A stretch of DNA of 32,000 nucleotides from Halomicronema hongdechloris C2206 (GCF_002075285.3 NZ_CP021983.2:3240001-3272000), one strand, 5' to 3'; positions 8,423 to 32,000 are shown, counted from the stretch's first letter. Translations and numbers: made by a program. Notes: generated by a model not told the origin, from the sequence alone.

Positions 8423-9124
8423 TCAGGTATCGAGAGGGTCAATGCCCTGCGCTTTCATTTGAGCCCGGAGGCGCTGTAGTTCCTGCTCTGCCTGCTCTGC
8501 CCGCTGGCGTTCTTGTGCCGCTAGCTCCTCGGGGGAGGGAATTAATTCCCCATCTGGGGTAAAAAAACGTAGCTTGTTTTCATGCACTCCCAGGTAAAGT
8601 TCCAGTTGATTGCTCCAGAGCCAGCCTTGTCCAGTGGTAGGAATGGGTTCATAGCGACCATCCAACAGGTGGAAGCCTTCTAGCTCAAACGTATCGGGAT
8701 CAAACCAAAAGTAATCGGGGGTACGAAAGATGTTTTGATACAGGACTTTTTTAGGCCCCTTGTCGACCTGCTTAGTCGAGGTGGACAAAATTTCTAGGAT
8801 TACGTTGGGATATTGGCCTTGTTCATCCCATACCACCCAGCTGCGACGATCTTTTTTCTCGGTGCCTAGAACCACAAAAAAGTCCGGCCCCCTAAAATCG
8901 CGGGATTTGAGCTGCTGCTGATTGTAGTAAATCGTCAAGTTACCGGAAATGTAAACATCGTTGCGATCGCACCACCACCCGCGCAAGATTCGAATCAGTA
9001 GGTCGATTTGGTCCCGGTGAAAATCGCTTTCCAAGGGCGGTTCATCACTCCAGAGATTGCTCGGGAGCCACTGCACGTCATCGGCTGCAACCGCTTCAGT
9101 AACCGAGGCTGTGGGCTGAGACAT
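8423..9124 (-). CDS. Uma2-family (DUF820) putative endonuclease with C-terminal coiled coil
   Basis: ORF 8423..9169. The ATG at 9124 is preceded by GGGAGG. 'PDFFVV...EILS' is a PD-(D/E)xK-like core typical of cyanobacterial Uma2 proteins. The tail is charged and helical ('QERQRAEQAEQELQRLRAQ'). Confidence 0.75.
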   Translation of the reverse strand: MSQPTASVTEAVAADDVQWLPSNLWSDEPPLESDFHRDQIDLLIRILRGWWCDRNDVYISGNLTIYYNQQQLKSRDFRGPDFFVVLGTEKKDRRSWVVWDEQGQYPNVILEILSTSTKQVDKGPKKVLYQNIFRTPDYFWFDPDTFELEGFHLLDGRYEPIPTTGQGWLWSNQLELYLGVHENKLRFFTPDGELIPSPEELAAQERQRAEQAEQELQRLRAQMKAQGIDPLDT

Positions 9125-10035
9125 AGGTGAACCTCCCGCAGAATACATCCATTGTATGCAACTACCCATGTATGCAATTACCCAGGGGCCTTCAGCATGT
9201 CACTGCAGATTGGCCCCTGGCACTCGCTCTAGAGTTAGATCACATCCAGCTGATCAGCCTCAAAAAACTAATGCGGATTTGATATTGGGTAGGTGATATA
9301 GCAACCGTGCCTATGCTTAGGACGGTTGCGGTCAGGTAGCTCCCTAGGCTAGGCATGGGAGCGATTCTCAATGTCCTAAGCTACCTGACAAACGCAATAG
9401 CTATTCCCTGTGCCGGTTGGTAAAGGCTGACTACCCCGTGGCGGTGGGTGCAGCGGTAGAGGGTCAGGACACTGAAGCACCAGAGGTCGGTTAACGGCCG
9501 CAGTGCAATGCAACTAATGGTGTTTGCAGCCAGGTGTCAATAGCAGCCTGGGGAGCTGGCATGGCTGCCGCCCTTAAAGCCAGCTGGGGAAGTGGCATAG
9601 AACTGCCTTAGGTTGGCCGGTGTAGTCGTTACAACATAGATACAGCCTGAGCACATCCTAAAAGCTCATGGCTGCACCCCAACGGCATGGGTCTACCTAT
9701 GATGACGACCATATCCCCCAGCCTCAGACCTGAGACAAGCTTCCTGATGATGTAGACGTGGACTTTGGTTGGGTCCCGTTTAGATCTGACGGGTTACCTG
9801 CCGGAAGCCTCGATCTAGAGCTGGCTTGATTATAGACCTGTGGGTCGTTGTTTGACGTTTAGATCCTGCTGTTCTGCATTAGATAGACAGGCGCAGGGCC
9901 GAGCGCCTGCCGTGAACGGGCAGATTGGCAGGAAAACACCCAATACCCATTGACTAGGTTCGGTTGGTTCTACGGAATCAGGCGGGGACCGTTGGTGGCG
10001 TGCAATGTAAACACGACTTGATTTGGAGAACTACC

Positions 10036-24869: not shown

Positions 24870-25000
24870 CGGTGAAAGCCAGCGGCTAGGGTAAAGGAAT
24901 GGTTCAGTAACATTAGCAAGATCTATCTGTTGTCTGCGAGTTTCCTCATTTGCAGTGCCTCACTAACCCTGCATTGTTAGTTCACCATCCCCTTCCCATC

Positions 25001-25034
25001 TCACCGGACATTCGGTTTTCCCGAGTCCGGCGAT
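25001..25034 (-). ncRNA. Group II intron domain V
   Basis: The 34-nt AUCGCCGGACUCGGGAAAACCGAAUGUCCGGUGA folds into a 9-bp lower helix with a G.U wobble in the triad position (CGC), a 2-nt bulge (AU), a 4-bp upper helix and a purine-rich GAAAA loop. Confidence 0.6.
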
Positions 25035-25044
25035 CCGACAGTCT

Positions 25045-25973
25045 TCATCGCAGAGCATTCACAGTCCGATTTTCGTACTTGATGAGTCCACTAGCAATGT
25101 AGATCATTCCCATTGCATAGAGTTTCCAGTCTGGATAGCGGTCCCATCCAAAGCCTCGACGTTTGCTTCGGTAACTCAAGTATCGACGAAACCGGGTATT
25201 GATAAAGTGTTGCAATCGACGAAACGCCTGACTTGCACTGGTGTGTCGGTAATAATTGACCCATCCTCGTACCATCAGGCTAATCCGCTGCAACCACTCG
25301 TTTGGCGAAATCGGTGCTCGTCGGCTGGTAATCTGCCGAATTTTCTGCCGAATTCGCTGTTGAGCCGTTTGGCTGGGCTGAATATAGATCGTTGGCTTGC
25401 CGCTGCGCCCACTGCGTCGCTTCACAAAATGGAACCCGATGAAATCAAACCCATCGGCTAATCTTGTAATCCGGGTTTTCTCCCGGTTCAAGCTCAGTTC
25501 CATCCGTTGGGCAATCGCCTCGAACGCTTGTAACGCTTGTTGTGCGTTCCCTCGGCAAACCAGAATCACATCATCGGCATACCGGTGCATCGTCGCGCCT
25601 AACTGCTGAGGATACCCTCGCGATTGCCAGACCCGATCCAGCAAATTCAGGTAGATGTTGCTGTAGAGGGGGGCAATTGGCGAACCTTGTGGCACACCTA
25701 CCCTCGTTGGCTCAATCTTACCTGCATATGCCACACCCACTTTCAGGCTTTGCTTGATCAGCTTCAGCATACTCCCATCCACCACTCGCTCCTGGATTAA
25801 CACCAGCAGCTTGTCGTGTGGAATGCTTGTAAAGTACCTTTTCAAGTCGATTTCCACCACGCCCCATGCTCCCCGATACAGGTCGTCTCGGATGGCAAGC
25901 GATGCCATCTTCGCATCCCGTTTCGGGCGATACCCATAGGAACACTCCTGAAAATCTGCCTCAAAGATTGGCT
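25045..25973 (-). pseudogene. Group II intron reverse transcriptase/maturase, C-terminal fragment
   Basis: 'PIFEADFQECSYGYRPKRDAK-MASLAIRDDL..', RT motif 'RYADDVILVC', and maturase X domain 'RGWVNYYRHT'. It is truncated at its 5' side by the IS. Confidence 0.85.
25966..25973. repeat. Target-site duplication GATTGGCT (left copy)
   Basis: An identical 8-mer directly flanks both ends of the IS. Removing the IS and one copy restores '..KLVLEPIFEADFQ..' in the intron ORF. Confidence 0.85.
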
Positions 25974-26000
25974 GGCTCTGCAGGAATGAGTATGCTGGTG
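25974..26000 (+). repeat. IS left terminal inverted repeat
   Basis: 19/27 matches to the reverse complement of 27229-27255. It starts with GGCTCT, as recalled for ISL3-family ends. Confidence 0.75.
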
Positions 26001-26006
26001 TAGTAG

Positions 26007-27239
26007 ATGCTATACCGTATCGCTATGGTACCTCTCTTGAGTGAACTCTTGGGGTTGTCTGGCATTGATGTGGAGTCATACCAGGAGAGCGAGGATGGCT
26101 TGATTCTGGAGGTAGAAGCGCACAGGGACACAGCAATCTGTCCTCGCTGCGGGACTTTGAGCCACCACCTCCATCAGAATCATGGCTACCTGGTGCGTGA
26201 CCTACCCATCAGCCATTACCGGAAGACCTGGTTACGGGTGAATCGCCGCCAGTTTAAGTGTTCGACCTGCGGTAAACCCTTCAGCGAGGAGCTGGAGTTT
26301 GTCGGCGCGCGTCGGGTGTACACGGACCGGTATGCCGAGGTGGTGGTGAGTGAGGTGATTCATAGTAATACGGCTAATGTGGCGCGACAGCACGGGTTGA
26401 GCGAAGATATCGTCTGGTCCATGGTGGAGTATGTCAGCGAAAAAAAGTCTGTATTGACTTGAGTGGATTGCGGCGGTTGGGCATCGACGAAATCGCGCTA
26501 CGTAAAGGTCACAAGGACTTTGCTGTGGTCTTGAGTGACCTCGATACTCACAGGCTGATTGGGATGGCTCCAGCGCGGACTCATGCGGCGATTGAAGCCG
26601 TGCTCAACACCTGGGGTGCCGAAGTGCTCTCAAACATTGAAGAAGTCAGCATGGATCTCTCCGGCAATTACCGGGGCTTAGTGCATCGCCTGATGCCTCA
26701 AGCCGAGATTGTGGCCGACCGTTTCCATGTCATGAGTCTGGTCAATCAGGAATTGAATCAAGCCCGTAACGCCCTCCGGCGGACACCCGAGGCTTTAGCC
26801 GAGGGCGTCACTCCTGAGGCGGCTAAAGCAGCGCTCAAATCCAGTAAGTATGCCCTCCTCAAGCCAGAAGCCCATCTCACCAAGACCCAGCAGGACAAGC
26901 TCGTTGAGGTCAAAGCTGTTTCGCCGAAACTCGCCTTGATGCATCAGACCAAAGAAGCCTTTAGGACTCGATTTGAGGCTCAGTCTTGGGCTCAAGCCCT
27001 GCCGGGTTTCCTGGGCTGGATGGGAACCGCGCAATCCCTCTACCCCGAGGCTGTGGCAACGATGAAGCGATGGTTTGGCGAAATCCTCCAGTACTTTGAA
27101 CACCGCACCACAAGCGGTGTCGTCGAAGGCATCAATACTCGCCTAAAGTTGATCAAGCGCTCTGGACGGGTTCACCAACTTTGAGCGATTTCGGCTCCGC
27201 TGCCTCATCTGCTGGCATTTTTCTCCTGCTGCTGCATAA
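26007..27239 (+). pseudogene. ISL3-family transposase split into three frame segments
   Basis: Segment 1 (26007-26447) has zinc-finger CxxC pairs 'CPRCG..CSTCG'. Segment 2 (-1 frame, to about 27167) has 'LGIDEIALRKGHKDF...ADRFHV' of the DDE domain. Segment 3 (+1 frame, 27168-27239) reads 'GFTNFERFRLRCL', the conserved ISL3 C-terminus. Confidence 0.8.
26441..26447 (+). other. A AAA AAG heptamer in the zero frame at the ORF1/ORF2 junction of the transposase
   Basis: The zero-frame codons are gaA AAA AAG. A -1 slip gives '..SEKK-VCIDLSGLRRLGIDEIALRKGH', a continuous, sensible ISL3 sequence. Confidence 0.5.
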
Positions 27240-27255
27240 TTATCCCAGGAGAGCC
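27229..27255 (-). repeat. IS right terminal inverted repeat
   Basis: See the left IR. Confidence 0.75.
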
Positions 27256-27263
27256 GATTGGCT
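27256..27263. repeat. Target-site duplication GATTGGCT (right copy)
   Basis: See the left copy. Confidence 0.85.
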
Positions 27264-27645
27264 CTAATACCAACTTCATTGCTGTCTGCACAATCCGGTC
27301 TTTTACCGTCGCAATCCCTAAGGGACGCGTGCCTCCTTGCGGCTTCGGGATGTCCACCCGTCGTACCGCATCAAAGTGATAGGTTTGTTTCCGTAATTGC
27401 GCTTGCAATTGTTGGATCAATGTCACCGCCTGTCCATTCTCTTCAATCTCGCGAATCGAAACGCCATCGATCCCAGGTGCGCCCTGATTTAGCCTGACTT
27501 GTCGCCACGCTTCCCACAGCACATCTTCTCGACAGAGCTTGTCATATAGACTGTAGAATTTTGTTTGCGGCTCCTGCTTAGCTTTGCGATATAAGCTCCT
27601 CTGGAGTTGTCGAACTTTTTCTGTTTCGTTGGTAGCCATTGGCAA
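27256..27645 (-). pseudogene. Group II intron reverse transcriptase/maturase, N-terminal fragment (130 codons)
   Basis: 'MATNETEKVRQLQRSLYRKAKQEP..LWEAWRQVRLNQGAPGIDGVSI..RRVDIPKPQGGTRPLGIATVKDRIVQTAMKLVLEPI' covers RT domains 0-2. The authentic sequence stops exactly at the IS junction. The likely start is the ATG at 27639. Confidence 0.85.
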
Positions 27646-28259
27646 TCAAAACATCCTCAACTCGTTTGGATACTGTTAACTGAAGTCAGGTTCCTTCCCT
27701 CCGATGGGGTTATGTTGTCCCACATCCTCAAGCAGTACTACGAACCTGGCGGACTTCTCCATCTACCAGCTCTGATTTCGGAGTTCCCTTATACAGACCT
27801 GTTGTTCGTCGCGACCGAACATAGATAGAGATCTCCCGACCTGGAACGACCAACTTTTCCAACGTGCCACCTCCACTACCCCGATGGGGGAAGGTTGGTC
27901 AAATGTTCGTTGAATCCCTTCCTTCTTGCAGCATTCCCGGTCTGCCGACCCGGTCTGCTCCCACAACTTTAGGTTTGACGAGGCTGATTTGAGTTCACTT
28001 TCGTTGCGGCCCGTTGGTTTGCCGCTGCTCACTTAAGCCCAGGAATCACTCCCTCAACTCGTTCGCGAAGCGTGCCGGAGGCATACATTGGCTAGACCCT
28101 TGAACGAACAATTAGGGTCAGGGGACTTTCACCCCATTAGTGTGTCGCCTGTATCGGCATGCCGGCAGATAACTTTGGTATCCTACCGATAACCTTTGTT
28201 CCGTCCGCACCAACGAGTTGTTATGCTGCGCTGACCTACCTGACGACATGGCTTTAAGA

Positions 28260-30650
28260 CTAAAGAAAAGCGCTAGGGATATGGAGTACTAGAGGGAGAT
28301 GCAGAAAATTGTCATATTGTGGAGCAATCCGCTGTAGATACTGAAGATAACCTAGCCAATGAAGAGTTTTATCATTAGGTTGTAGGAGTGGATTTGCCTC
28401 AACCAATGTAATTTTCTTGGCAGTGGTTTTCGTTTTAGGCTGAATAACCTTGCCGGATCTATGCTCGTACGGTCGCAGCATTGACTCTTGAGAGTTGCTT
28501 TGATCAGTACTAGCTTTAGGGCGAATTAGGAGATATGAATTATCACCAAATTGAGCAATCGCTCTACCTCGTGCAGGCTGATTTTTATCGTTATTCCAAA
28601 GTGTCGCCTGTGGCAGTTCTCCACCATCACGACATCGGATCACTCGACAATTATTTGGTAGTTTAAACAGCTCTAACTCGCCATTTTGGTTAAGTAAAGA
28701 AATTGTGCCGTCCGCCCCAAATTTAGAATCATACAATCCATTGAGAGCCTGTCTCGTATTATTTGAGTAGGGTAGAATTAATGTCGAGATGGTTGAATCT
28801 GCAAGCTCCCTAAAAAAACTGGAGGTAAGATTTTTCAGCTTTAATCCTTTGCAACCTTCAATGGTAGTTGCAGCTTGAACGTAAGGAATAAATTCACGTA
28901 AAGGTTGCCAAGTGCTGATCGCAGTGCGACCTGTTAATATTCCTTTCGCGTCCAACTTTACAGCAACAGGCAAGTAATTTCCATTAGAGAGCTTGTGCAA
29001 GTGAATGCCGATTGTTTGCAAGTCTAGAGGAAGTTCGTAGGCTTTGAGGGCTTCAGGGATTAACCCATCATGATAGCCCAAGCGGCATTTCATGGTGAGC
29101 AAGGTTGCTTTACACTTGTGCGATATTTCCTCAACTTCATCTTCACCTGTCGGGACTGTCAATCTCTTTATAAGCAAGTTACGATCTGGCAAAAACTCCT
29201 CAAGTGAATTATATGGATCCTCTTGCGGTCTTTGTTTGAAATAATTCTCAGGATAAATCGGAAGAATGAGTACTTTTGTCTCGTTGCAACGCTCAGGGAG
29301 TGCTTTAACTCGTTCTGCTATTACCTGGTCACGATCCTGGTTACGTTGCTGCCAATTATCTTCAGGTGTTACAGGTATTGGATTACACATTTCAACCAGC
29401 CCTGGATCGGTTTCCTTAATGAGGTTGAATTTAAGCTTTTTAGCTTCATGTTCAAGTGCTTTGCCTATATCCTGAAAATCAACATAATGGATTAAATCAG
29501 GACAGGAAGAGGGTCGGAGTTTTGAAAATTTAGAATTGCCTTTGTCAATAATCTTAGGTTCAAAGTATTCAAAGCCAGGTTGTAATATTGGTGCGATTGT
29601 GTCGAATAAGTGAGCTAAATCGTTAGGTGTAACCCCCGCTGTAACATCCTGAAATTTTTCACGCCCCTCACGATTGACAACCAAAAAACGCAGCTTTAAA
29701 TCAGGATTAGACCAACCAAGTGGATTACTTAAAAGCTCATCTGCACTAGGAACAGAATCATAGTCAAATTTACTAAGAAGTTCAGCTAAGTTGTTTTCCC
29801 AGCATCGAACTTCATTGATTTTTGCAGTACAAACTCCATTAGGAGTATAAATCATCACGCTAAAAGATTCAGGCAGTTTTTTGCGGGTGTAAGGCTTAGA
29901 AAGATAACGACGCACCCCAAAGTCGAGGGGTAAATATATTTGAGGTTGCCCCGGAATCTGAAGCAATCGTGGATGAATCATGAAGGAGTAAGGGTTACCT
30001 TTTTTGGAATAAAAAACATCCGTAATACAAAATTGAGGTTTTTGAAATAAGGAGCTTGCGATTTCTAAAGCAGGAAGAAATTTAATTGATTGGAATTGAG
30101 AACTAAACTCAGGAAAACTGAGATTACTTTTTACGATTTGTGAAACTACAATACTCGGAATTATTTCAAATAAGCAAGAATCTCGTGGTTGCGCAGTACT
30201 ATTGACGGAAAGCTCCCAGTCTTCTGGTGAAAGCTGATGTTCCTGCCATCTAAATGAAGCCTGTTCGATAGCCGCCAATGATGCTGTAATATCTTGCTCG
30301 ACTGCTGATTTTTGTCCGCGTTTCTTAGGAAGTGTAAAGGTCTCTCTCACCCAATGCTTAAGCAATCGCTTAACTCGTTCTTCAGGGACATGTTCAAGGC
30401 AGAAAAGGAAAGGCTTGTCAGTAGGCAAGCGACCATCGGCACAAACAACTTGAGGGATTGAGGCATTAACTAGAGCTTTGAATTGATATCCTGGCAAGCT
30501 GATTGGATGATTGCCTCGCTGTGAGCGATCTCGTGAGTAGTCAACAAGTAAGATCTGCTTGAGGTCAGCAGGAAAAGTCAAACTGTAGTAACTATCACGC
30601 AATTGGTTGGGGTTAAGCTGCAAGGCCGCAGCTTTGAGTGAGATTTTCAT
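28260..30650 (-). CDS. 796-aa Argonaute-like protein with a MID-PIWI-like C-terminal half (catalytic tetrad not evident) and an N-terminal ~450 aa of unknown fold
   Basis: An uninterrupted 796-codon ORF in AT-rich DNA, so the CDS itself is near certain. The function is inferred by eye. MID-like strings are 'KVLILPIYPE..DPYNSLEEFL..LLIKRLTV..KATLLTMKCRLGYHDGLIP'. PIWI-like strings are 'LQTIGIHLHKL', 'NSYLLIRPKAS..SMLRPYEH' and the C-terminal 'LHWLGYLQYLQR...HLPLVLHIPSAFL'. Confidence 0.55.
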   Translation of the reverse strand: MKISLKAAALQLNPNQLRDSYYSLTFPADLKQILLVDYSRDRSQRGNHPISLPGYQFKALVNASIPQVVCADGRLPTDKPFLFCLEHVPEERVKRLLKHWVRETFTLPKKRGQKSAVEQDITASLAAIEQASFRWQEHQLSPEDWELSVNSTAQPRDSCLFEIIPSIVVSQIVKSNLSFPEFSSQFQSIKFLPALEIASSLFQKPQFCITDVFYSKKGNPYSFMIHPRLLQIPGQPQIYLPLDFGVRRYLSKPYTRKKLPESFSVMIYTPNGVCTAKINEVRCWENNLAELLSKFDYDSVPSADELLSNPLGWSNPDLKLRFLVVNREGREKFQDVTAGVTPNDLAHLFDTIAPILQPGFEYFEPKIIDKGNSKFSKLRPSSCPDLIHYVDFQDIGKALEHEAKKLKFNLIKETDPGLVEMCNPIPVTPEDNWQQRNQDRDQVIAERVKALPERCNETKVLILPIYPENYFKQRPQEDPYNSLEEFLPDRNLLIKRLTVPTGEDEVEEISHKCKATLLTMKCRLGYHDGLIPEALKAYELPLDLQTIGIHLHKLSNGNYLPVAVKLDAKGILTGRTAISTWQPLREFIPYVQAATTIEGCKGLKLKNLTSSFFRELADSTISTLILPYSNNTRQALNGLYDSKFGADGTISLLNQNGELELFKLPNNCRVIRCRDGGELPQATLWNNDKNQPARGRAIAQFGDNSYLLIRPKASTDQSNSQESMLRPYEHRSGKVIQPKTKTTAKKITLVEANPLLQPNDKTLHWLGYLQYLQRIAPQYDNFLHLPLVLHIPSAFL

Positions 30651-30652
30651 GA

Positions 30653-32000
30653 TCAGAAACCCTTAACATTGAGAAGTGCTTGAATGCCCTGTGACCAAAG
30701 GAATACTGCTTTAGGATCTTTTTGCAATTGTTTTGCTCGGTCAATCGCATCGCCAAGATAAGAAGAATAAGCTGCATCACACAGCCGTACTGTTGCATCA
30801 ACCTGCCCTCTCATGATGCGAGGCCATAGTTGCCCAATATCCTCAACCCACCACCGATTTAAGAGAATATTATTCATAAAGCTCTTGGAAGCTTGGGGAA
30901 GATAACGTATCTGACGTTTGAAAGCTTGATCAATTAGCCGATCTGCGATTCGTGCATAATATCGGCATTGATCAAGTAGATTAAATCGTTGAGGTGGATC
31001 TTTTTCGGCTAAAAGCTTAGCTCGACGAGCCAAGATGTCAGGTAACCGTTGATCAGTTTCAAAAAGTGAAACCAAAAACAGCTCAATAGAAATTTGTAGG
31101 TCAGTTGGATGAGCGTGTGGTCTAACCAACGAGTAAAGGGCACAAAACGCAGCCTCGCGACTACCGGGCGGAACAATATTAATATCACGACTCACACCCT
31201 GAAAATAAGCAATCAGGACATCAACACCGGGAATAGTGGCAAAGCGCTCAGCGTGACGACGACGAAGACAAGCGGCTCTCTTCCGGGGATCAAAGCTGTC
31301 TAAGTTATCATTATCTCCAACTAGAACTTTACAGCGATCACCCTGTCCCAGAAATTCAAGTGCTTCCCATACGGCCCAGCATTGAGTTTTTGAGTTAGTC
31401 GTCAGAAGTGCCCGCCGTCGGGCTTCAGGATATTGTTGTAAGTCTTGCTCAACGATCGAGGCAGATCCCCCCTCAAAGAGTCGCTTAGTAATTTCAGAGA
31501 TTGCTGCAAGCTTGTCTTCAGTTTCAAGTCCACTCACAAAGATTGGGTTACCGTCAGACTTATAAAACGGATGATAGTGCAGACTAATTTGCCCATGTTG
31601 TCGGTCTTGCCGCTGTAAGAGATAACCATCTGTGCGTAAGTGATAAATCGAGCGGCCATCAGGTAACCATCCCGTTGCTGTTGCGAGGACAAAGTGGCAT
31701 CCCGCGTAGTCGTCAAGTTCATACAGCTTACTCAAGTTAGCGACCAGGTCAGGCCCACTAAACAATAGTGAGAAATACAAGAGGTTAAGATCATCATGAT
31801 TAATGCCACGATCTAAAACCAGTCCGGCAGCTCGCCCTGTGATTAAACGAGGAAAAATATTTTCCAAATATTTTGGGTTACTGCTAAGAGCAGGTTGGGG
31901 AGCATCTCTCTTAATTGAGATTGCCATTTCGCTAGCGGTCAACCCGCGATCAGCATCATGCAGCAAAACTAAGAGCGCATTGACGGCTAAAATAATCAGA
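30653..32000 (-). CDS. Partial CDS (N-terminus beyond the window): SF2 / DinG-XPD-like helicase-related protein, upstream partner of the PIWI-like gene
   Basis: The frame stays open past the tracked TTG (31966) to the window edge ('..LIILAVNALLV-LLHDADRG..'). Motif-like strings are 'LLVLLHDADRG' (Walker B/DEAD-like), 'HFVLATATG' (motif III SAT-like) and 'VLIAYFQGVSRDINIVPPG' (resembles the DinG/XPD motif V region). Its TGA lies 2 nt before the downstream ATG. Confidence 0.45.
   Translation of the reverse strand, partial: LIILAVNALLVLLHDADRGLTASEMAISIKRDAPQPALSSNPKYLENIFPRLITGRAAGLVLDRGINHDDLNLLYFSLLFSGPDLVANLSKLYELDDYAGCHFVLATATGWLPDGRSIYHLRTDGYLLQRQDRQHGQISLHYHPFYKSDGNPIFVSGLETEDKLAAISEITKRLFEGGSASIVEQDLQQYPEARRRALLTTNSKTQCWAVWEALEFLGQGDRCKVLVGDNDNLDSFDPRKRAACLRRRHAERFATIPGVDVLIAYFQGVSRDINIVPPGSREAAFCALYSLVRPHAHPTDLQISIELFLVSLFETDQRLPDILARRAKLLAEKDPPQRFNLLDQCRYYARIADRLIDQAFKRQIRYLPQASKSFMNNILLNRWWVEDIGQLWPRIMRGQVDATVRLCDAAYSSYLGDAIDRAKQLQKDPKAVFLWSQGIQALLNVKGF

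Follow-up and report, generated by a model that had tools for sequence, protein, structure and literature searches.

A divergent copy of the PIWI-RE system in the cyanobacterium Halomicronema hongdechloris C2206

Within the prokaryotic Argonaute (pAgo) superfamily, the PIWI-RE family is defined by an absolutely conserved arginine and glutamate in an extension of the beta-sheet, and the gene triad to which it belongs was predicted computationally to serve in DNA defence, with cyanobacteria among its listed hosts, as early as 2013 (Burroughs, Iyer & Aravind, Biol Direct 8:13). In the Pseudomonas stutzeri member, PsPIWI-RE, these two residues are numbered R639 and E718, and work in vitro showed guide binding as well as cleavage of DNA/RNA hybrid-type targets (Huang et al. 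2022, PMC10991935). PIWI-RE systems constitute the 'pAgo type III' class of PADLOC (PMC11333966), and in the searchable literature their islands form the one branch of the superfamily for which neither a demonstrated in vivo function nor a solved structure was found. A second point of reference is the experimentally solved DdmDE system, in which the inactive pAgo DdmE recruits the DinG-like helicase-nuclease DdmD. Here we describe a locus at positions 28260-32000 of a 32,000-nucleotide stretch of Halomicronema hongdechloris C2206 DNA (GCF_002075285.3 NZ_CP021983.2:3240001-3272000; hereafter the window), in which a PIWI-RE gene follows the gene of a DinG-type superfamily 2 (SF2) helicase. The locus is a divergent cyanobacterial copy of the known PIWI-RE system and not a new kind of module. 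Drawing on family membership, the operon architecture of orthologous loci, intact motifs, purifying selection, foreign base composition and a lack of synteny, we estimate a probability of roughly 80% that positions 28260-32000 hold the 3' end of a PIWI-RE island (a restriction endonuclease (REase) of Y-zinc ribbon-PD-(D/E)xK type, a Z protein, an iron-sulphur (Fe-S) DinG/XPD-type helicase and pPIWI-RE) acting as a guide-directed sensor system.

The pPIWI-RE gene occupies 28260-30650 on the minus strand and encodes 796 residues followed by a TAG stop. Its assignment draws on the open reading frame (ORF), Pfam and PADLOC profiles, a structure model and exact database identity: the product is identical to ASC72144.1/WP_080810188.1, an entry labelled 'uncharacterized protein' or 'DUF3962 domain-containing protein'. 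Other proteins of the window are also exact matches to Halomicronema hongdechloris C2206 entries, in agreement with the cyanobacterial host that had been proposed from the DNA. Upstream, at 30653-32000 on the same strand, lies the 3' part of the helicase gene, coding for the C-terminal 448 residues and recognised by its open frame, the PADLOC model PprDinG, identity to orthologues and motifs III-VI; 449 stop-free codons are found at 30653-31999, and the frame reaches the window edge. Neither ORF contains a frameshift or internal stop. Direct reading of the junction (30651-30664, minus strand) gives ...GGT TTC TGA tc ATG AAA..., with the helicase stop TGA at 30655-30653, a 2-nt spacer, the ATG at 30650 and a Shine-Dalgarno-like AAGGG (30664-30660) located 10 nt ahead of that ATG. 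The two minus-strand frames are thus spaced as originally reported, and the island genes are translationally coupled.

The 796-residue protein is a divergent member of the PIWI-RE family. Pfam pPIWI_RE_X (PF13111, DUF3962) matches residues 11-369 with an E-value of 7.4e-31 (108 bits, above the curated cut-off), and RNaseH_pPIWI_RE (PF13032, DUF3893) matches residues 560-791 at 4.4e-7 (30.4 bits, the cut-off being 25). The PADLOC model PprPIWI extends across residues 3-790 (2e-54), and PADLOC RNaseH_pPIWI_RE scores 4.3e-8; from their names, we infer that the Ppr models are the components of PADLOC 'pAgo type III'. The MID_pPIWI_RE profile (PF18157) gave no match to the window protein at E<=1, while in the orthologue from Lyngbya it aligned with residues 439-522 at E 0.0029, short of the Pfam cut-off. 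No Pfam Piwi or PAZ match was obtained in the 796-residue protein, and NCBIfam returned nothing for either protein of the island. An exhaustive HMMER scan of 1.84 billion cluster representatives recovered no more than 59 proteins at E<=1e-3. The 50%-identity cluster of the clade itself accounts for one, and the rest are at most 27% identical, with E-values of 1.6e-19 or weaker. A word-index homologue search, restricted by the limits of its index, retrieved just five close PIWI-RE orthologues with a 44-sequence family alignment and a single irrelevant weak match with the helicase fragment.

An AlphaFold2 model built on the 44-sequence alignment has a mean predicted local distance difference test (pLDDT) score of 85.2 and a predicted template modelling (pTM) score of 0.85. 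When this model was compared with the PDB using Foldseek, the 50 best matches were all full-length Argonaute or PIWI proteins (E 5.8e-14 to 5.7e-10, probability 1.00, template modelling (TM) scores 0.36-0.50), among them MILI, MIWI, CpAgo, KpAgo, TtAgo, human AGO1-4 and CtAgo. The alignments cover the whole protein, including the N-terminal 'X' region (residues 11-369; 29544-30620, minus strand), which PF13111 and Foldseek place where the N/PAZ lobe would be. A MID-like domain follows at about residues 383-540 (29031-29504, minus strand), delimited by strand/helix alternation in the model and by column counts, and then a PIWI domain of RNase H fold at residues 545-796 (28263-29018, minus strand), delimited by PF13032, secondary structure, column counts and an hhalign comparison with TtAgo. 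In the latter domain the model has strands at 545-553, 559-566 and 572-576, then a helix at 584-592 and another at 602-617; helix 584-592 is the extra helix that marks the family after the initial three-stranded RNase H meander. The MID-PIWI fold that had been threaded by eye onto the C-terminal half is supported by the RNaseH_pPIWI_RE profile and by an all-Argonaute list of best structural matches. Since sequence searches of the PDB with both window proteins, a full-length orthologous helicase and a 44-member PIWI-RE profile yielded chance-level matches only, we found no solved PIWI-RE structure.

Twelve columns are invariant in the 44-sequence alignment, which includes the window protein, and this protein keeps every one of them, R672, E678, E751 and D760 among them. 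R672 and E751, which the model places in strands 668-675 and 747-755, are separated by 79 residues, the same spacing as R639 and E718 of PsPIWI-RE. The MID region shows an alternating alpha/beta pattern in the model and conserves the invariant D478-P479 as well as R447. Five further MID residues are near-invariant in the family (K480, R484, R492, Q495 and F496, each in 31-38 of 38 representatives outside the clade). In contrast, the six members of the clade (Halomicronema, Lyngbya and four metagenomic sequences) have Y480 (6/6), E or K at 484, L or F at 492, K495 (6/6) and R496 (5/6), with R490, conserved in all six, as an additional clade-specific residue; the changed stretch, residues 478-496, lies at 29160-29220 (minus strand). 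A pocket rebuilt in this way could select a different guide, for example by 5' end chemistry or by DNA versus RNA.

The PIWI active site was compared with that of TtAgo, whose catalytic tetrad we take to be D478, E512, D546 and D660. Aligning the family profile with the TtAgo sequence (taken from plasmid pTT27) by hhalign gave a probability of just 7%, with a colinear path over 254 columns that is consistent with the predicted strands. In this low-probability alignment TtAgo D478 falls on H550, a position where the clade has His or Tyr and 37 of the 38 other representatives have Trp; D660 falls on S793; E512 on about Y590, with E586 close by; and D546 on D641, at an ambiguously placed gap, where the family has Asn or Asp. 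All six clade members share D641, which lies about 29-31 residues ahead of the family Arg, where PsPIWI-RE D610 would be expected. With two of the four canonical positions non-acidic, a full DEDX tetrad is probably missing from the PIWI domain. Taken together with the absence of the tetrad from most PIWI-RE proteins (Burroughs et al. 2013; Huang et al. 2022, PMC10991935), the non-acidic H550 and S793 suggest, at low confidence, that this PIWI-RE binds or senses its target and does not slice it. Were it instead an active guide-directed slicer, as reported for PsPIWI-RE, the task of the helicase and REase would be guide generation or processive clean-up; the clade-wide D641, aligned with TtAgo D546 and sitting at the PsPIWI-RE D610 position, and the likewise acidic E586 and D760 would fit such a role, whereas the His, Tyr or Trp in place of D478, the Ser in place of D660 and the absence of the tetrad from most of the family argue against it, and we regard it as unlikely.

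The remainder of the operon can be read from orthologous loci: L012 and L002, both metagenome assemblies that are 91% identical to the window at the DNA level, and L001 from Lyngbya sp. CCY1209 (79%). The 448-residue helicase fragment is 95% (L002) and 91% (L001) identical to residues 435-882 of the 882-residue orthologues, and it matches PprDinG at 6.2e-35 over profile positions 566-901 of 930, that is, its C-terminal half; Pfam, like NCBIfam, gave no match to the fragment. The full-length orthologues score 4e-59 with PprDinG, 1e-7 with Pfam DEAD and 2.6e-5 with a type IV CRISPR DinG model, and in them four conserved cysteines lie between a Walker A motif (GPAGTGKS) and an IDEAD box. Relative to six canonical PIWI-RE helicases, the fragment has ATATGW against SGTSW in motif III, LLTTNS against LLLVNSY in motif IV and GVSRDINIV against AVERGHNIV in motif V, and motif VI (Q390-x3-R394-x2-R397-G398) is invariant throughout. 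The helicase motifs thus look intact, with the Walker A, DEAD and Fe-S cysteine elements read in the orthologues, and the C-terminus consists of motif VI and a short tail, with no nuclease domain. An hhalign comparison of the helicase profile with E. coli DinG was weak (probability 5.9%), the aligned stretch running from the Fe-S cysteines to DEAD/DEGH, and modelling the fragment's structure from its sequence alone gave an unusable result (pLDDT 36.5). The PprDinG match and the motif alignment support the SF2/DinG-like character ascribed to the upstream product, and the P-loop whose absence would have spoken against a helicase is present in the full-length orthologues, the window fragment being the C-terminal half.

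In all three orthologous loci the gene order is fixed, REase first and PIWI-RE last, as described for the family by Burroughs et al. 2013. Gene 1 encodes a 357- or 358-residue protein with pPIWI_RE_Y and pPIWI_RE_REase domains that retains a four-Cys zinc ribbon and D...D-x-K; gene 2 a free-standing pPIWI_RE_Z protein of 180 residues (L001:6810-7352, L002:2357-2899, L012:1530-2072); gene 3 the 882-residue helicase; and gene 4 a PIWI-RE of 796-800 residues. The Z gene shares 4 nt with the start of the helicase gene and 14 nt with the end of the REase gene, and the helicase/PIWI-RE spacer is 2 nt in L002 and L012, as in the window, and 3 nt in L001. As an REase gene is present in every orthologous locus, one is expected past position 32000. 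The nuclease gene anticipated in the original prediction is therefore found in L001, L002 and L012, while for the H. hongdechloris genome itself it is extrapolated from these loci. Six canonical loci (L005, L006 and L008-L011; L006 is CP017599.1, a 9.67-Mb NCBI genome record) have three genes only, with Z fused to the helicase (1080-1139 residues). Domain content is equal in the split-Z clade and the fused-Z loci, and gene boundaries alone differ. The free-standing Z could link PIWI-RE and helicase as a dissociable adaptor or regulator. That the clade might be a functionally distinct subtype, combining such a Z with a MID pocket rebuilt for another kind of guide, is a tentative idea that we consider possible but on balance doubtful.

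The locus was also proposed to be an uncharacterised variant, neither protein being a close copy of a known component. This part of the original prediction does not stand: both proteins strongly match dedicated pPIWI_RE or PADLOC Ppr profiles (the PIWI-RE protein through PF13111 and PF13032, the helicase fragment through PprDinG and not Pfam), the family is catalogued and already recorded from cyanobacteria, and the Lyngbya orthologue is named 'pPIWI_RE module domain-containing protein' in RefSeq. The accompanying assignment to the PIWI-RE island class was correct, given these profile matches and the helicase plus PIWI-RE layout.

The island differs from its surroundings in base composition, as had been noted: the final four 1-kb bins of the window (28-32 kb) have a guanine-plus-cytosine (GC) content of 0.41-0.46 against 0.51-0.60 in the remaining bins, and island GC is below that of the flanks in Lyngbya also. 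Genes in the left 25 kb of the window are ordinary chromosomal ones (a hybrid histidine kinase, GlmU, diaminopimelate (DAP) epimerase and components of a liv-type ATP-binding cassette (ABC) transporter). Homology to L012 ends exactly at the PIWI-RE stop codon. Downstream of PIWI-RE there is a group II intron in the window and in the metagenome contigs L002-L004, a ParE toxin-antitoxin (TA) pair in L012 and XisH/XisI in L001, and the upstream neighbours likewise differ between loci. A conserved syntenic housekeeping locus is rejected on these grounds, the flanks differing in every locus and the composition being foreign. Judged from such sequence evidence, the island appears to be a mobile accessory element, horizontally acquired by Halomicronema hongdechloris C2206, with genes that appear functional. 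No tandem repeats or arrays were found beside the island, Rfam at gathering thresholds gave no match in the window, and a promoter and terminator scan of the window did not rise above shuffled expectation.

How such a system might work can be outlined from the fold, the family literature and the model of Burroughs et al. 2013, with DdmDE as an analogy. First, pPIWI-RE would hold a short nucleic-acid guide whose 5' end sits in the MID pocket, and the guide would pair with invading plasmid or phage nucleic acid, possibly in R-loops or DNA-RNA hybrids. Second, an RNase H site lacking two of four acidic residues would, by the low-confidence alignment described above, act mainly as a sensor. Lastly, the target-bound PIWI-RE may, with Z serving as the adaptor, recruit the DinG-like 5'-3' helicase, and the helicase may unwind or translocate on the target and present the DNA to the REase for cutting. 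Guide use, recruitment, target type and a defence phenotype are all inferred.

Several points weigh against this reading. The REase, the Z gene and the helicase N-terminus of H. hongdechloris fall outside the window and are projected from loci of 91% identity. The MID pocket departs from the family consensus, such that guide binding is not assured, and the catalytic mapping depends on an hhalign alignment of 7% probability with an ambiguous gap; the acidic D641, E586 and invariant D760 could form a non-canonical site. An in vivo defence phenotype for a complete PIWI-RE island was not found in the searchable literature, and the sole in vivo PIWI-RE phenotype found there, ciprofloxacin sensitivity and cell-division defects upon knockout in P. 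stutzeri, points to replication or repair (PMC10991935). The main rival to a sensor system of immunity is accordingly a replication or repair accessory, in which PIWI-RE and the DinG-like helicase would act on the host chromosome by resolving R-loops or topoisomerase-linked damage; besides the knockout, it is favoured by the action of DinG helicases on R-loops (Burroughs et al. 2013). The distribution speaks otherwise, being patchy, with one 50%-identity cluster for the clade and the 59 representatives recovered from 1.84 billion, as do the foreign composition, the lack of synteny, neighbours consisting of TA modules, intron, insertion sequence (IS) and recombinases, plasmid-borne relatives, and a restriction-fold nuclease that is always linked, all features expected in accessory defence islands rather than among core repair genes. 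We therefore hold a role in replication or repair to be rather improbable.

Pairwise ratios of non-synonymous to synonymous substitution (dN/dS) against the three orthologues are 0.12-0.14 for PIWI-RE, and the helicase fragment gives 0.05-0.10. Values of 0.05-0.14 signify purifying selection and hence real genes; chance ORFs or pseudogenes are rejected on this basis and on that of the intact frames. The same numbers bear on whether the island is a decaying, non-functional relic, as might be imagined from a flanking intron itself broken by an IS and from upstream genes known through orthologues alone. Against that stand both intact ORFs, the low dN/dS and the retention of all family-invariant residues, which make decay very unlikely.

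Several features of the neighbourhood deserve mention in their own right. The adjoining mobile elements described earlier were confirmed as a group II intron whose reverse transcriptase (RT)/maturase gene is split by an ISL3 transposase. The intron occupies about 24900-28210 on the minus strand, the strand of the operon, with its 5' GTGCG at 28210-28206, 49 nt past the PIWI-RE stop; Rfam group-II-D1D4-6 scores 45.7 bits at 27869-28129 (minus; E 5e-11), slightly below the gathering score of 49. The RT/maturase ORF of the intron is broken into two pieces (27205-27645 and 25045-25908), between which the ISL3-family IS lies at 26007-27184 (plus strand). The ISL3 transposase is itself split into a 151-residue helix-turn-helix/Zn-ribbon ORF and a 241-residue DDE ORF, with an overlap of 4 nt. 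The H. hongdechloris genome has many annotated near-identical copies, and at the settings chosen no terminal inverted repeats were found. The passage from the PIWI-RE stop to the same intron 5' end (window 28198-28259) recurs at L002:7938-8000, L003:2702-2764 and L004:2690-2752, independent metagenome contigs carrying the 91%-identical orthologue, all of which break about 25 nt into the intron, as would be expected for a multi-copy repeat. The intron is absent at the PIWI-RE site in L012 and L001, so that the junction is common to part of the clade.

In L012 a ParE-toxin/Unstab_antitox pair lies directly 3' of the PIWI-RE gene (L012:7402-7919). The neighbours of the canonical PIWI-RE loci include TA modules, a gene for an OLD-family ATPase-TOPRIM nuclease, recombinases and transposases, typical defence-island company. 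Distant relatives of the PIWI-RE protein (about 24% identity) reside on the Nostoc plasmids NZ_CP040301.1 (36710-39634) and NZ_CP054694.1 (91154-92275), one of which is predicted to be conjugative, and are annotated just as 'DUF3962 domain-containing protein'; none were found in 50,697 phage records. A 248-residue ORF at 8423-9169 (minus strand) matches the Uma2 'putative restriction endonuclease' family at E 9e-23; its neighbours are housekeeping genes, and it seems to have no connection with the island.

What the locus and its clade add is the split Z gene (read in the orthologues), the short PIWI-RE and the altered MID pocket, whereas the family, the operon and its presence in cyanobacteria have been known since 2013. 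By itself the locus leaves general knowledge unchanged and confirms the family in cyanobacteria. As an intact, well-delimited copy under purifying selection, with full-operon orthologues at hand, it is a usable start for functional study of the PIWI-RE class. Should the clade prove a distinct subtype, it would offer a tractable four-component model for guide acquisition and for target hand-over to helicase and nuclease.

Among known systems, the classical long pAgos (TtAgo, CbAgo and CtAgo) share with the window protein the bilobed fold (Foldseek E 1e-11 to 1e-13, TM 0.4-0.5) and the order of MID and PIWI. The window protein differs from them in sequence, with 8-11% identity and no Pfam Piwi/PAZ match, and in its extra helix after the first three RNase H strands; H550 and S793 occupy two tetrad positions here, and the gene is obligately linked to a helicase and an REase. 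The DdmDE system of Vibrio cholerae, raised in the original prediction and now no closer than an analogy, is alike on paper, an Argonaute fold without DEDX, a DinG/XPD-type SF2 helicase and a PD-(D/E)xK nuclease being encoded together with the same functional logic. Membership in it is nonetheless rejected with near certainty, given that only Ppr/pPIWI_RE models match at E<=1 in a PADLOC release that presumably includes those for DdmD and DdmE, that the nuclease is a separate gene at the operon start (in the orthologues) and not fused to the helicase C-terminus as in DdmD, that the helicase orthologues keep four Fe-S-type cysteines whereas DdmD has no cluster, that the N-lobe is an X domain accompanied by an extra Z protein, and that no DdmE structure appears among the top 50 folds.

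PsPIWI-RE is closer, a member of the same family with the same R/E spacing of 79 and with a D610 to which D641 may correspond, mapped by spacing only. It has a second catalytic Asp, D525, for which no counterpart could be placed in the window protein, where the equivalent of the strand-1 TtAgo D478 is a His. Closest of all are the pPIWI-RE three-gene islands themselves, as captured by the Pfam profiles PF13111, PF18157, PF13032 and PF18154-6 and by the PADLOC models PprRE, PprDinG and PprPIWI ('Argonaute type III'). Their X, RNaseH_pPIWI_RE, Y, REase, Z and DinG-like helicase domains are all present here (REase, Y and Z in the orthologues), as are the tight coupling of genes, the order from REase to PIWI-RE, the family R and E, the helicase Fe-S cysteines with a helical insert, and the patchy, island-like spread. 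The clade departs from them in having a separate 180-residue Z and an 882-residue helicase against fusions of 1080-1139 residues in the six canonical loci, a PIWI-RE of 796 residues against mostly 840-930 in representatives outside the clade, at most 27% identity to every other 50%-cluster representative, and MID residues Y/E/L/K/R in place of the near-invariant K/R/R/Q/F.

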